This document shows positions 3,391 to 47,645 of a stretch of DNA of 64,000 bases, one piece after another. Source of the DNA: Octopus vulgaris. Its lineage: Eukaryota. A model generated the notes under the pieces. The model saw only the letters and a program-made list of their open reading frames with translations, had not been told where the DNA came from and did not search any database. Where the stretch lies: NCBI GenBank assembly GCA_951406725.2, contig OX597821.1:57970001-58034000 (forward strand). The letters run 5' to 3'. Numbering within the stretch: position 1 is the stretch's first letter; each line of letters opens with the position of its first letter. The position numbers were made by a program, and so were the translations under genes.

Positions 3391-3475
3391 TCGGTACAAT
3401 TGTTTCGTACGAAGACATCTTTAATAAGGCTACAAAAATTGCAGTAAATATAGATGGCTCGTACGCATCAGCCGA
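3391..3475 (-). ncRNA. Hammerhead-like ribozyme in a short TA-flanked insert
   Basis: Minus strand tcgg-CTGATGC-gtacga...tcgtac-GAAA-caattg-TA-ccga; three stems close, A9 replaced by C. Confidence 0.65.
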
Positions 3476-4581
3476 AAAAACATCCGAGATTTCCAAACAT
3501 CAAAGGGGGTAATGTTACAATCGTGAAACATCATGGAGAGTTCTATAAAAGTGGAAAAATTTAGATAACAAATTGGTTTCTAAGATTTCAGTTAGTATTA
3601 CATAGTATTACATAGTCATATATATATATATATATATGTAGTCTCCCGCCTCCCTTTTCCCCTCACTTACCACCCCACGACCCTACGTCTCCAACGCACC
3701 ATTCTTCGAGCTTTCCGTCGTCTCCAGTCCGACCCGTCCACTTCACACCTCTTCCCTAACCGACCCCTCCCCTCTTTCAAACGAGCCCACAACCTTCGAG
3801 ACCTTTTGGTCCATAGCTCCTTCCCTGACCCTACCTCCCAACCCGGCTCGTTCCCCTGCTCCCGCCCACGTTGCCGCACTTGCCCTTACCTCTCCAACAC
3901 CACCCGCCTCACTAGCACCCACCATCGACCCTATCCCATCATCCACTCCTTCACCTGCACCTCCAGCAATATTATCTATTGCATCTCTTGCTCTCTCTGC
4001 AATTCCTTGTACATCGGACAAACGGGACGCCGCTTGGCTGACCGGTTCGCGGAACACCTTCGTGACATCCACCTTGCGAACGACACACCGGTCTCACGCC
4101 ATTTCCGCTCCACCGGTCACTCCTTGCAACACCTATCTGTGTTCGGTTTGTCCTTACACAGAGGCCATCCGGATTCCCGTTTGCGCCGTGAACAGGAATT
4201 AATCTTCTCTCTTCGCTCTTATACGCCATTTGGTCTCAACTCTCCCCCCTCCTCATCTAACCCCCTCTCCCCCTCCTCACCTATCCTTTCTCCCCCCGAC
4301 CCCCACTTCTTCAGTCCTTCATCCTTTCACCCCTACTCCCCTTCCCTTCTTCCCTCTTTCTCCCTCCCTCTTCCCCTTCCCTCTGCTCCCTCACTCCCTC
4401 TCTCCCCTTCTCCCTCTTTCCTCCTTCATCCCTCTCCTCCCCTTCCTTCTCCCCATCCTCTCCTCTTCACCCTCCCCTCCCCCTCTTCTTCCCCTCCCCT
4501 TCTCCCCCTCTTCTCCCCTCCCCCTCTTCTCCTCACTACACCACATGACTTTACACATCACATCACATATGATGTGCCATA

Positions 4582-4910
4582 CTAATACACACACCAACTA
4601 ATACATACTAATACGTACTAATACATACTAGTACATACTAATACTTACACCAACCCTATACATACACACGTCCAGACCCCGCATACGCACTTATACTCTC
4701 TCACACACACACACACACACCTATACATACCAATACGTACTAATACATACTAATACATACTAATACATACACCAACCCCATACATACGCACGTCCAGACC
4801 AATCCCACGCACTGATACTCTCTCATACACACACACACACACACACACACCCTTATACATACTAATACATACACCAACCCTATACATACACATCCAGACC
4901 CCTCCCACGC
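4582..4910 (+). repeat. Nested repeats in PLE 3' UTR (tactaataca 10-mers within ~120-bp units); second copy near 9064-9392
   Basis: Repeated tactaataca and three acaccaacc(c)..catac..c(g/a)tccagacc units. Confidence 0.8.
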
Positions 4911-5072
4911 ACTTTTAGCTGGTCCCTCAACCCTATTATCTCCCCTTATTTCGCTCTCGCGTCTCATGTTTGATCTTTGACCTCTGGCCGAAATCAGATC
5001 GCCATGTTGATTCGTTAGCTACTGCACGCATTTTTTTCTCTCCTTCTTTCTGTGTTTTTCTCTCTCTGTGTA

Positions 5073-43229: not shown

Positions 43230-43530
43230 CATTTTTTAAATTCACAAAATTTTGGTATTACTTTAAATTCAGTTTACATGAAAAACTTACAAGTTAACAA
43301 ATTTTTGGAGTTCTTTTAAAATTTGAATTTTCAACTGTTAGCATACAACCACTCCTCATCCAGACCTGATCCCAATGCTAGATGTTCAAGAACCAAATAA
43401 AGGGCAGATTTTCAATCCAGGGATCATGATTCCAAAATGATATATGTCAATGTAAAGAGAATTTAGTCGGAGACACAGGGGTTGCGGACGGACAGAAAAA
43501 ATTTCGCGTTTATTATAATAGTATAAAGTA
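43230..43530 (+). mobile_element. Possible Helitron/Helentron-associated non-autonomous element 3' end
   Basis: Ends cggacggacaga..ttcgcgtttattataatagtata, reminiscent of DINE/HINE termini. Confidence 0.35.
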
Positions 43531-46500
43531 TTTGTATCGTAGTATCCTTTTTAATGTTTCATACATGTTTCTATATAAACATTCTGACGTCACCTTACGA
43601 ATAATTTTCATATTTATCACTGAATGCATTGAGATATGTAATTTTCTTATTATGTGTGTGTGAGTGTGTGTGTGTCAATTTATCAGCAATTTTGTTTGCA
43701 CATACGTATAAGTATGGTAAAGTGTTTTAGACGTTTCTATTACTATAAAAGGAAATTTTTGTACATTTCTATATGCGTTCTTCTTCTTACCGCTTGAATA
43801 TGAATGAGTAATCTTATGCTACTATGTGAGTCAACAGATTTGAAGCATGTATATGTGTGTATACACATACATACATATACATATATATATATATAAATAT
43901 AATATATATATATAATATATATATATATATATATATATATATATATATATATATATATATATATATATATATATATATATATATATATATATATAATTAG
44001 ATATAAGGATAAAATCTATATAAGAATTTATCAAGTAGTCAGCGTGAAAAACCAGTTAAGGGAAAAATTTATACAAAATATATAATTAAGTTATTCCCTT
44101 TAAACACATTTATTATATTAAGGGCATTTACGTGTAGTAATATACGCACACATATGCACACACACTCACACACATTCATTTATATGACTCCCAGGACTTG
44201 ATCTTTAATAATGACTTAATTACTTTTATAATCACTTTTTATCGTAGATAGATGTGTCCGCATCAATATGTTAGTATTAATGTGTTAGTGCACTGGGTTT
44301 TGAGCGTTCAATGTTTCGAAGTGACACTTGTTAATACTAGCTCACGGTTTTCTTTTTTCTCCCCTTTTTCGAATATATTTGCAAATATTACTTCTTGTAT
44401 GAGTCATTTAACTTTCGTCAGTTGTAGTAGCATTTGTATTGATCTAAACATATACATATAATGGTATTTGTGTTTACTCTCTCTCCTTCATATATATATA
44501 TATAGATAGATAGATAGATAGATAGATAGATAGATAGATAGATAGATAGATAGATAGATAGATAGATAGATAGATAGATATAGATATAGATATATATAAT
44601 ATTCATATACAATATATAAGTATATAAACATAATATCATATAATATATATATATATATGTCTATATATACTACGTAGATTGAGCTATAATCCAATCTGTG
44701 CCCTCGTGAAGCATATTTGTATTTTCCAGTGCTTCAAAATTGTATGTAGATGTCATAATTGTGTGGAAAATGTATAAGAGTTGAAAAATACTGGAAACTA
44801 GTTTCTGCAGAGTAATTACATATCAAAAAAGAAAACTGGAAAAACATTTTGATGTTATTTGTTCTCCATTACATGTGTTCCATTTGCTAATAGGAGGTAG
44901 AAAACTGTACATGTAGGTAAGGCATTAAGATAACTCCTATCAGAAATTCTTCAGACTGAGAATCAAATAATTTTATTAGCAAATATTATATGTATTTGAT
45001 TCTCTATCTGAAGAATTTCTAATACGAGATATCTAACATGATTTACATTACATGCACAATTTTCTAACTTCTGTTAGTAAATGAAACACGTGTAATGGTG
45101 ACTATATAAAGCCAAAATTTTTTTGCAATACATGTATATACATATACCTATACGCACGCACACACATAAATATATAAATGTACATAAATGCGCACACATA
45201 TATGCATATATGTGTGTGTATGCATATGCACACACGTGCATAAAAATTTATGTGCATTTGTGCATATGTATATATATATATATATATATATATATATATA
45301 TATACACGCAAATGTCAAACGATGAAAATGAGTGCTCAACACCGCATTGGTGGATATAATTTCTTTACTTGTGAATTAAAAGTACCATTGGTTTCATGTT
45401 AAGAAAAGTAGGAAAATGACAAGAAAAATTCAAATATATATCTTCCTTTTTTAGCTGGTACTAAAATGGTGATTTTACGATACCTTGCGAGTGAATCTGG
45501 CAGATTGAAGCTGTATGGAAGCCCGCCGCATGTGTGTGTGTGTGTATATATATATATATATGTGAGTGTGTGTGTGTGTGTGATATCGTGTCTGTGTTTG
45601 TCTCCCACACCGCTTAATTGGTATTGGTTTGTTTACATCACGGTAACCTGTCAATTCAGCAAAAGATTTCGATAGAATAAGTACCAAACTTTAAAAGAAA
45701 CGCAAGTGCTGGTGCTGATTTGTTTCACTAAAACTCTTCAGAGCAGTGCCCCAGCATGGTCTCAGTTTAATGACTGAAACAAATAAAAATAAAGAAATAC
45801 AAAACAGTATTTCATTTCCAATCATTATTTTTATAAGATTCACCTCTTGTCGGAAATGTATGTTACATAACAATAATCTGCAATCTCTATATTGCTTAAT
45901 GACATAGACATCTAGAATATTCTGCATATTTATTTCAACGAATATGTGAGATGTGTTAATATTTTACAGTTTGCTGTTTTTGCTTTATTTACTCAGATAT
46001 AAATTTTTTTCTTTTGAATTCTCTACTGGAGTTAACATAACTAAGGCTATATTTTCTTAACATGCAGAAATACCTATTTATTCCCTAATTAAGTAACATG
46101 AATTCTATAAGTATATATAGAATAAGTATATATAGTATAAGTATATATAGAATATAACTTATTTCCATGAAAATACGTCGTAAAAACCAGCATGTGATTT
46201 ATCTGCAGAACCGACATAGCTACAGCATTAAATATTATTGTACGTTGTAAATTCCAGAGCCGTCATTTATCTCCGTGCCTTGATGTTAACTGACCGCACC
46301 CTTTTAAGGCAAACGATGGTTATAGGGGCAGGGCACAAGGAGTAATATTTACTGCATTTTTTTTTACTTTGGGAGAAAATATATTTTCCACGAATGTTCA
46401 CTACTTTACAAAAATATCAGCTAAGCAAATAACCTTCCCTAAATGCCTTAAAAACTCTTTAACATATTTAGAAAACTATTTCAGAAAATCTCTGTTCTTT

Positions 46501-47437
46501 TTGAACATATAAAAGAGAAATTTAGATGGGGTAAAATTATTAAGTAGTGATAAGGTAAATTTGTGTACTCAGTTATCCAGAATTACATTTGAGAAAAGAC
46601 TCCTACATCAGAAAGATCAGAAATGCAACAAAACTTTTAAATACCTAATGAAAGAGGATCACGATAGATAGCACATGAAATGAAATTAACAAAATTCGAT
46701 CAAATCATAAAAACCCAACATAAAACATTCTCTTTAGCTTCTTCACGGTCTGCTGGAATAGCCATCTCCTTGATGTTTCTACGCAAAATGCAATTAAAGA
46801 GAAGAAATTATTGAAATTAGTCATTTCTCATTTTGTCCCAGTTTAGACATCACATTTTGAAAATAGAAAACTATCAAATCAGACATTATTGTGGTAAAAA
46901 AAAATTAGCTTGGAATCCAACAGAGAAAAGAATATTGGTTGTTAAAGACTAAAATTTATCCAGATAACTTAGTAATCTCAACTACAATCGACTCAAAGCT
47001 GAGGAAAAATTTCTTGAAAAAAAAATACCTGTCACCCGTTTCAAACCCTCTCAACTTCAACAATAATACCAATGCTGGCCAATATTAACTCCTAAAGATG
47101 GTGCAACAGTACGAAATGATGATGCTATACTTGCAATGTAACGGTTTCAAACATGAAGAGAGAAAATAACGAAAAGTCAGAAGTTACTCACTAGGTCATT
47201 ATTACTGTCTTGTAAACAAAATATTCTTTTACTTTTTTCAGTCATTTGACTGCAGCCATGCCTTTAGTCGAACGAATCGACCCCCGGACTTATTCTTTGT
47301 AAGCCTAGTACTTATTCTATCAGTCTATTTTGCCGAACCGCTAGGTTACGTGATGTAAACGCACTAACATCGGTTGTCAATCGATGGTGGGGATAAACAC
47401 AAACATATATATATACATATATAAATATGTATATATA

Positions 47438-47645
47438 TTGTGACCGCGTGTGTACCGTTGGCGATATTTTTCCTCCGTCTTCCCTTCATGGATCTTTCCT
47501 TTTCCTATGTTTCTGACAAAGAGCTTCGCTCGAAACGTTGAACCCTCCTTCTTTCCTTCTTTCCTGAGCGTCCAATAATACTATACTTGTTCCACGTCCT
47601 CGCATTGTTGTTTTCTCTTTGTGTTTTCATGTTTGGATTAACTAT
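47438..47645 (+). mobile_element. Solo PLE 3' end with hammerhead-like motif (47509-47543); shorter minus-strand relatives at 18936-18990 and 23011-23120
   Basis: gttt-CTGACAA-a-gagc(ttc)gctc-GAAAcgTT-gaac, then ttcctgagcg as in the large PLE; TA-flanked. Confidence 0.7.

Follow-up and report, generated by a model that had tools for sequence, protein, structure and literature searches.

TA-repeat inserts with hammerhead ribozyme motifs in a 64-kb Octopus vulgaris window are most likely 3' ends of several Penelope-like element families

Introduction

A 64,000-nucleotide (nt) stretch of the Octopus vulgaris genome (GCA_951406725.2, contig OX597821.1, positions 57,970,001 to 58,034,000 of the forward strand; hereafter the window, numbered from its first letter) contains many short inserts in (TA)n microsatellites whose sequences fold like hammerhead ribozymes. 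The locus raises the question of what kind of element leaves such inserts. A sequence-only reading had described them as diverse, short, non-coding, TA-targeted elements of unrelated sequence, some perhaps retrozyme-like RNAs mobilised by the enzymes of Penelope-like elements (PLEs), with ordinary 5'-truncated PLEs as the fallback. Here we argue that the motifs are hammerheads of a kind already known from PLEs and that they are quite probably the 3' ends of several PLE families, of Neptune type, of Hydra type and unassigned, lying in TA repeats. The PLE origin of these 3' ends is shown by homology for one group of motifs and is likely, by extension, for the remaining ones.

Results

Hammerhead motifs in the window

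Reading by eye, a descriptor scan and folding located hammerhead motifs at all 12 positions named by the sequence-only reading, some of them as halves or in decayed form (Table 1). The type I core CUGANGA...GAAA...UH is perfect at 36301, 36404, 45004, 35902 and 34322, and helices I, II and III all form around the core at 3391, 5073/9555, 36301/36404, 45004 and 47509; the motif at 45004 and the decayed copy on its inverted arm were absent from the earlier reading. The folds that it did list were borne out by reading, folding and shuffle-controlled scans, with 34322, whose lowest-energy fold hides the cut site, remaining doubtful or decayed, and its four remnants were found as 3' halves (33770 and 39705) or decayed hammerheads (35310 and 40100). 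It was also right that most motifs share a palindromic helix III, which is present at 9 of the 12 positions, the exceptions being 34322, 36301 and 36404. Alone, an 8-nt palindromic helix III is predicted to form a 2-bp hairpin at +2.4 kcal/mol, and with a second copy an 8-bp duplex at -6.4 to -11.1 kcal/mol.

Our descriptor, composed after the sequences were known, found five anchors with a helix I of at least 3 bp, whereas 40 block-wise dinucleotide shuffles gave 0.2 on average and never more than 1. Four of these anchors are hammerheads (3391-, 36301-, 36404+ and 45004+) and the fifth, at 25925, is probably due to chance; motifs with an ACGT helix III were missed by the descriptor and were read by hand. 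A core-gap-core pattern matched once (35906-36001) and never in 100 shuffles. Together with the conserved contigs of the family at 3391 described below, these controls reject a chance origin of the motifs. Four candidates (25925, 11649, 24585 and 54226) were discarded as chance because they have no matching helix I or II. The hammerhead scan proposed by the sequence-only reading had a divided outcome, since the descriptor found its four hammerheads and the Rfam models matched none: no family reached its gathering score on the motifs, the hammerhead models gave no match at E<=10 for two motifs searched singly, and an E-value scan of the window yielded only microsatellite and hairpin noise among the 150 of 297 rows listed.

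The window is AT-rich and dense in microsatellites and short repeats. A (TA)>=4 run lies at most 250 nt downstream at 11 of the 12 positions, versus 27% of non-microsatellite positions, a comparison in which the sites are not independent. The idea that (TA)n bounds the inserts holds on this downstream side and fails at single ends, as the inserts at 33637 and 39650 abut TG/TATG runs on one side and the motif at 40100 has TA on its 3' side only. Nine motifs placed in one alignment are too divergent for covariation analysis, and our evidence at the family level comes from the 64-kb window and from public sequencing contigs placed on 3345-4230. Judged from sequence and folding, the motifs are real type I hammerheads.

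A whole Neptune-type element and its truncated relatives

For 4 of the 12 positions, an ORF-bearing parent type is present within the window. The element at 3639-9690 has the organization of an endonuclease-bearing PLE, with one open reading frame (ORF) encoding reverse transcriptase (RT) and GIY-YIG domains and with flanking, hammerhead-bearing pseudo-long terminal repeats (pseudo-LTRs). The C-terminal endonuclease, CX2-5CxxC linker, CCHH residues and DKG motif are those of the Neptune clade, as read from the translation; the homologs bear no clade names. Its protein has 648 homologs at E<=0.001 among 8000 scored, the named ones being from snails, urchin and coral with 47-52% identity, and the frame at 5835-8720 continues into low-complexity sequence. 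Both cores of this young element (5078-5084 and 9560-9566) and that of a decayed relative (35311-35317) carry U at core position 6, which may therefore be a family trait. At 9690, the 3' junction has 8 nt (TTATATAT) in common with the sequence into which the element itself continues behind the 5' pseudo-LTR (5208-5216), versus 0-3 nt shared at the junctions of the other, fold-back ends.

The motifs at 5073, 9555, 35310 and 47509, which we call the ACGT group, are 67-68% alike (E<=2e-10), and those at 36301 and 36404 are one sequence in two arms, so the description of the motifs as unrelated does not stand. A compensatory pair in helix I (C-G versus G-C) separates 5073 from 47509. Three copies of the 47509 family share their 3' end but begin at 47441, 23121 and 18987. 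These 5' ends lie some 70 nt ahead of the core, shortly past the cut site and 51 nt away from the end, respectively, which indicates 5' truncation. Given this truncation and the homology to a coding PLE, both "unrelated" and "non-coding" are contradicted for the ACGT group. "Short, non-coding" does fit the short inserts, in which there is no PLE-like frame, and does not fit 5073 and 9555, which sit in a 6-kb coding element. Sequence homology thus shows the ACGT group to be 3' ends of a PLE.

Hammerheads with a long helix II

A further set of families (3391, 35902, 45004, 33770, 39705 and 40100) is distinguished by a long helix II, and in three of them the core halves are 58 (3391), 68 (45004) or 77 nt (35902) apart. 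For the family at 3391 we used contigs of four sequencing runs, X1 and X2 being DNA runs and the two others being guessed to be RNA; the rows are unphased, variants come from 40 of 122 rows and joints from 15 of 77, and summed contig depth is not a copy number. At position 3465, the canonical A9 base makes up all depth in all four runs (36, 27, 5 and 1 contigs), so the A9>C change is private to the window copy. The free position N7 is variable (about 70%). With A9 and N7 set aside, variants of at least 5% in the two DNA runs fall at 11 of 46 places in the distal helix II and its loop and at 0 of 37 places in the core and stems (P 0.0009, among the 40 of 122 rows).

Along the 3391 unit, depth declines steadily in the direction of the 5' end, in X1 from 113,000 at the tail through 44,000-69,000 over the motif and 11,000 just upstream to 2,300, and in X2 from 216,000 to 540. 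One drop lies between 3485 and 3502 (57,000 to 11,000 in X1, 49,000 to 6,400 in X2), a five- to eightfold decrease 10-27 nt upstream of helix I. One contig, from a run guessed to be RNA, extends 294 nt past 3550, some 227 nt beyond the 5' end of the window copy, and its first letters are related to that copy. The family is covered in both runs guessed to be RNA, with one contig at a depth of 43.5 in X19. No go-back joint was seen inside 3361-3617 among the 15 of 77 joints listed. In X1, contig depth over the adjacent endonuclease region of the Neptune-type element (3645-4230) is roughly tenfold that over the 3391 motif, and the region shows numerous internal deletions as well as two go-back joints (4212>4020 and 4218>3990) that resemble partial tandems.

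About 176 nt downstream of the 35902 motif lies a second, unrelated hammerhead-like remnant (35690-35760, minus strand), decayed and with its helix II deleted. It is likely an older insert that was struck by the 35902 element at a short TA run. For 34961-36069, there was no RNA run among the sequencing runs listed.

Fold-back inserts

Four inserts are ribozyme-bearing, head-to-head inverted pairs (33637-33827, 36159-36605, 39632-39831 and 44837-45127), and two further fold-backs lack a ribozyme (34040-34129 and 41430-41616). Four of the six (33637, 33974, 36172 and 41430) have a clear one-sided tail of 65-92 nt. An inverted, 5'-truncated copy and a one-sided tail have been described as hallmarks of PLEs (Craig et al. 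2021, PMC8557442), and pairs of hammerheads on opposite strands 100-700 bp apart were reported together with dispersed motifs that were ascribed to truncated PLEs (Cervera and De la Pena 2014, PMC4209133). The turning point lies 22 nt upstream of helix I in two of the fold-backs and inside helix II in two others. Those at 36172 and 41430 have a common tail family and different turning distances. A tail motif recurs at 36597-36683, 41617-41700 and 43996-44090 (64-76% alike) in inserts that otherwise differ, the third tail spanning 43996-44130 on the minus strand; it is a candidate protein-binding or start site.

A Hydra-clade-like remnant

The broken ORF at 36766-37992 resembles, by its sequence, a remnant of a Hydra-clade-like PLE. 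Its thumb, linker, endonuclease and C-terminal CxxC blocks fit the Hydra alignment by eye, with a CxC-x9-C linker and the RT part absent. Its neighbours in a protein atlas are mollusc and cnidarian clusters, one of which has GIY-YIG on 12% of its members, and a Neptune-type profile built from 120 homologs reaches it only at E 0.75. The same profile found no other PLE frame near the inserts. Two helix III words of the Hydra clade recur letter for letter, at 16971 and 45395. A TA-flanked insert at 41105-41410 on the minus strand contains a hairpin, GAAAC, 23 nt and CTGATGA, with the core halves in reverse order and no hammerhead fold. This spacing is like the 22 nt of the "half-core" at the 3' end of Naiad_Obim and Naiad_Ovul, and the insert may derive from the 3' end of a Naiad and carry a different conserved RNA structure.

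Table 1. Hammerhead motifs, inserts and PLE features in the window
Feature	Coordinates	Strand	Details
257-nt insert	3361..3617	-	Flanked by (TA)n runs on both sides; many-copy family; ribozyme preceded by 142 nt and followed by 30-nt tail
Type I hammerhead	3391..3475	-	Single core change A9>C; core halves 58 nt apart; 4-bp helix I; helix III ACAATTGT
Whole Neptune-type PLE	3639..9690	+	About 6 kb; sits in (TA)n
Pseudo-LTRs of this PLE	3639-5208, 8122-9690	+	1.58 kb, 99.8% alike; each includes the endonuclease-coding end and the 3' untranslated region
Minimal hammerhead, 5' pseudo-LTR	5073..5110	+	Core CUGUUGA, with U at core position 6, and a bulged A; helices I and II of 5 and 4 bp; helix III ACGT
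ORF of this PLE	5835..8720	+	RVT_1 (E 1e-7), DKG, C-x4-C-x2-C linker, C-terminal GIY-YIG (E 0.005)
Minimal hammerhead, 3' pseudo-LTR	9555..9592	+	Identical to 5073-5110, including U at core position 6; about 100 nt from TA junction
Hammerhead 3' half	16961..17010	+	Truncated within helix II; helix III ACTC-C-GAGT, the same as in Hydra-1/2_Ajap
51-nt 3' end, 47509 family	18937..18987	-	Lacks ribozyme; 84% alike
Short 3' end akin to Neptune-type tail	20531..20600	-	Lacks ribozyme; 77% over 57 nt
109-nt 3' end, 47509 family	23013..23121	-	Begins a few bases after cut site; 83% alike
Fold-back	33637..33919	+	Arms 33637-33827, 94% alike; centre falls within helix II; 3' half alone on each arm (33770), helix III ACGATCGT; 92-nt one-sided tail
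Fold-back lacking ribozyme	33974..34124	-	Arms 34040-34124; 65-nt one-sided tail, recurring at 20917-20952
236-nt insert	34182..34417	-	Motif 34322-34373, doubtful or decayed: perfect core and 5-bp helix II good; helix III non-palindromic; helix I non-abutting
Decayed 3' end, Neptune-type relative	35281..35420	+	Decayed, broken minimal hammerhead (35310); 67% over 154 columns, E 1e-11
Insert	35880..36069	-	In hammerhead 35902-36005, core perfect and helix I broken; base of helix II 13 bp; core halves 77 nt apart; helix III ACACGTGT
Fold-back	36172..36683		Arms about 210 nt, centre 36382; letter-perfect hammerheads 36301-36359(-) and 36404-36462(+); helix III 4 bp, 3-nt loop; one-sided tail of about 80 nt
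Broken, 5'-truncated PLE ORF, Hydra-clade-like	36766..37992	+	Thumb, linker, CxC-x9-C, GIY-YIG-like endonuclease
Possible decayed long-helix-II hammerhead (weak)	39010..39139	+	Some 1 kb behind Hydra-like ORF; remnant of helix III (CAATTGT) and 6-bp match for helix I; ends at TA
Old fold-back	39650..39831		75% alike; centre inside helix II; minus arm holds only the 3' half (39705), helix III ACAGCTGT
Decayed hammerhead (40100)	40057..40145	-	Core CTGGTGA, with core halves 19 nt apart; helix III ACAATTGT; (TA)n reached after a 48-nt tail
Fold-back lacking ribozyme	41430..41700	+	Tail 76% over 70 nt to tail of 36172 fold-back
Old fold-back	44837..45127		77% alike, centre 44982; intact hammerhead 45004-45098(+) with perfect core, 68 nt between core halves, helix III ACACGTGT; decayed copy 44866-44958(-)
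Decayed hammerhead remnant	45305..45450	-	Helix III ACCA-A-TGGT as in Hydra-1_Obim
205-nt 3' end, 47509 family	47441..47645	+	68% over 131 columns to Neptune-type element, E 2e-10; minimal hammerhead 47509-47543, core change G8>A

Discussion

What left the inserts

A whole PLE with the motif in both pseudo-LTRs, the relatives at 35281, 47441 and 20531, and fold-backs with tails favour PLE 3' ends as the source of the inserts. The fallback of the sequence-only reading, ordinary 5'-truncated PLEs, is the best fit to the fixed 3' ends, the variable 5' ends and the ORF-bearing parent type, and its picture of several TA-associated families with PLE-type, type I hammerheads is upheld by the whole PLE, its relatives, the fold-backs and the Hydra-like remnant. 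Several observations weigh against an origin from PLE 3' ends. No parent ORF was linked to the long-helix-II families (3391, 35902, 45004, 33770, 39705 and 40100), to 34322 or to 36172. The sole candidate parent link, at 39010-39139, is heavily decayed, with a fold no better than that of shuffles (z -0.68), and the ORF at 36766-37992 is a fragment with no match in sequence searches and no Pfam family. Ten 8-nt palindromic helix III words gave no occurrence in the available text of the Craig et al. 2021 supplement (PMC8557442), in which line breaks may hide some. Two-sided compensatory change within the 3391 family was not seen among the variant rows listed, the U6 in the core of the intact element is non-canonical, and the one-sided tails of 65-92 nt compare with 30-40 nt in the published case. 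Depth also dips over loop II, 4-fold in X1 and 30-fold in X2. Such dips arise from divergence alone, so the fall of depth towards the 5' end of the 3391 unit shows that this 5' part is not common to most copies and does not show the cause, which can be divergence as well as truncation.

The long-helix-II families might instead be dedicated non-autonomous mini-elements of about 130-260 nt, consisting of a short leader, the ribozyme and a tail, with their own RNA start and mobilised by PLEs. The drop in depth just upstream of helix I in the 3391 family, the turning of fold-backs either at a short, constant distance upstream of helix I or inside helix II, and the missing parent ORF would all fit, and non-autonomous PLEs are known in Chlamydomonas. 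We nevertheless think this decidedly unlikely, as the window copy of the 3391 family reaches 142 nt upstream of its ribozyme, a related contig extends beyond that, 5' ends seen within the window vary between and within families, divergence by itself gives similar dips in loop II, and inserts that were found through their ribozyme have ends biased towards it. A wider claim is doubtful, namely that ribozyme-only mini-elements with the long-helix-II variant and its 8-nt palindromic helix III are very abundant, and that the ribozyme itself dictates where, some 10-30 nt upstream of helix I, their 5' ends and fold-back points fall. If it were true, the hammerhead would mark a discrete RNA start or reverse-transcription stop and the role of PLE hammerheads would become directly testable; if, in addition, the helper or parent were a Naiad, the view that hammerheads are missing from Naiads would have to be given up.

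The retrozyme-like RNAs of the sequence-only reading would be non-LTR retrozymes, tandem repeats of 150-450 nt whose ribozyme-cut monomers circularise and are copied back by PLE enzymes. Insert sizes of 140-260 nt, low GC, the lack of an ORF and a type I motif with weak palindromic helix III agree with their description (PMC7229834), and the coverage of the 3391 family in runs guessed to be RNA would suit them. Even so, no insert in the window forms a tandem array, and with no tandem monomers seen the reading is unsupported. Whole ribozymes lie inside their inserts and are followed by a tail joining TA, such that no insert ends at the cut site of a whole motif; 5' ends vary, coverage along the 3391 unit is not flat and has a strong 3' bias, go-back joints are lacking in 3361-3617 among those listed, and helix I has 4-5 bp in these families versus the canonical 6. 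We consider retrozymes highly improbable here. That the fold-backs are DNA-type miniature inverted-repeat elements inserting at TA, with hammerhead-like words by chance, is scarcely credible: long terminal inverted arms and TA flanks speak for it, yet the arms meet with almost no spacer, there is an extra tail at one end, the related fold-backs at 36172 and 41430 turn at different points, and the same class of motif is found in unfolded copies and in a coding PLE.

A possible route of insertion

If the inserts are PLE 3' ends, the element protein would nick (TA)n DNA and, downstream of the ribozyme, prime reverse transcription at either of two internal sites. As has been seen in another PLE (PMC11167929), the two start sites could yield copies with or without a tail; fixed, TA-joined 3' ends and one-sided tails are observed in the inserts of the window. 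Copying would halt after 50-260 nt in most events, and a ribozyme 30-230 nt from the 3' end would be carried whole, partly or not at all. Where both nicked strands prime, or where the enzyme turns back, a head-to-head fold-back could result, a presumed route to structures that are seen. In a parent transcript with two pseudo-LTRs, the two palindromic helices III are predicted to pair into a cleaving dimer, whereas lone genomic hammerhead copies are likely inert and decaying.

Comparison with known systems

Like the minimal hammerheads of metazoan PLEs (PMC4209133), the motifs here are of type I, with a helix I of 4-5 bp, a bulged base after A9 and a short palindromic helix III, and they form many unrelated families per genome, mostly as single dispersed motifs with some opposite-strand pairs. 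They differ in helix II, which is 7-8 bp there and accounts for 58-77 nt between the core halves in three families here, and in the U6 of the intact element. The element at 3639-9690 matches the Neptune clade (PMC8557442) in its RT followed by a C-terminal GIY-YIG domain, CX2-5CxxC linker, CCHH-type residues, DKG, hammerhead pseudo-LTRs and microsatellite targets; the 8 nt shared between its 3' junction and its own continuation depart from the clade description. The same source describes for the Hydra clade insertion into (TA)n, a CxC-type linker, an endonuclease without CCHH and, near the 3' end, a helix III of 4 bp closed by a loop of 1-2 nt, all with apparent counterparts here, two helix III words being identical, and it lists a Hydra-clade family for Octopus bimaculoides. 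Loop II is 3-10 nt in the motifs listed for that clade, unlike here, and the clade's linker is CxC-x5-C rather than CxC-x9-C.

Non-LTR retrozymes (PMC7229834) are likewise small, non-coding and AT-rich with a type I hammerhead and weak helix III, and PLEs were proposed there as helpers. However, those are tandem and processed to circles, and the inserts here occur singly or as inverted copies, their 3' tail being fixed and joined to TA and their 5' ends variable. The Poseidon element PAc cuts AT-rich DNA in vitro, both strands being extended and two internal start sites defining the tail (PMC11167929); its hammerhead needs protein for cleavage, and cleavage is dispensable for insertion. The window inserts share with PAc the AT-rich target, the one-sided tail and a hammerhead upstream of the presumed start site. 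PAc belongs to another clade, and its start site is non-homologous to the target and its tail 30-40 nt long.

Our findings add examples to the picture drawn in 2014 and 2021 of many dispersed PLE hammerheads that stem from truncated copies in invertebrate genomes. A literature search found no octopus hammerhead study beyond Craig et al. 2021, and "ribozyme" and "hammerhead" are absent from the main text of a 2026 octopus repeat annotation. Three points seem worth keeping. One is the hammerhead variant with a very long helix II, of which examples may already be contained in Lunse 2017 (PMC5785218) or in the supplements of Cervera and De la Pena 2014; pattern scans for it gave 13 viral and 8 metagenome loci, none with a helix I of at least 3 bp and all judged to be chance. 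Rfam and short-spacer descriptors miss this variant, so hammerhead counts in such genomes may be too low. The second is the whole, young element of Neptune type whose two cores both carry U6, and the third is a hint, bearing on the role of PLE hammerheads, that copies may end just upstream of the ribozyme.

Other repeats in the window

The window also holds a frameshifted long interspersed nuclear element (12001-15081, plus strand) with an apurinic-type endonuclease (Pfam E 4e-8) and RT-like frames, which ends in (TATA/TACA)n. Another non-LTR family, whose endonuclease looks restriction-like by eye, has left remnants at 50646-51329 and 59297-60682 on the plus strand and at 29741-30982 on the minus strand; these adjoin (AAT)n runs at 50727 and 51531, and 29741-30982 is 70% alike to 59133-60416. 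Tandem 516-nt units made of short repeats, 86-91% alike, occupy 56785-58214, and a remnant at 63139-63707, mariner-like in its transposase by eye, has 36-nt terminal inverted repeats. Inverted repeats or hairpins that lack a ribozyme occur at 9936-10027 and 58489-58585, and a further inverted repeat of this sort, at 53519-54622, has 142-nt arms that are 92% alike and about 820 nt apart.

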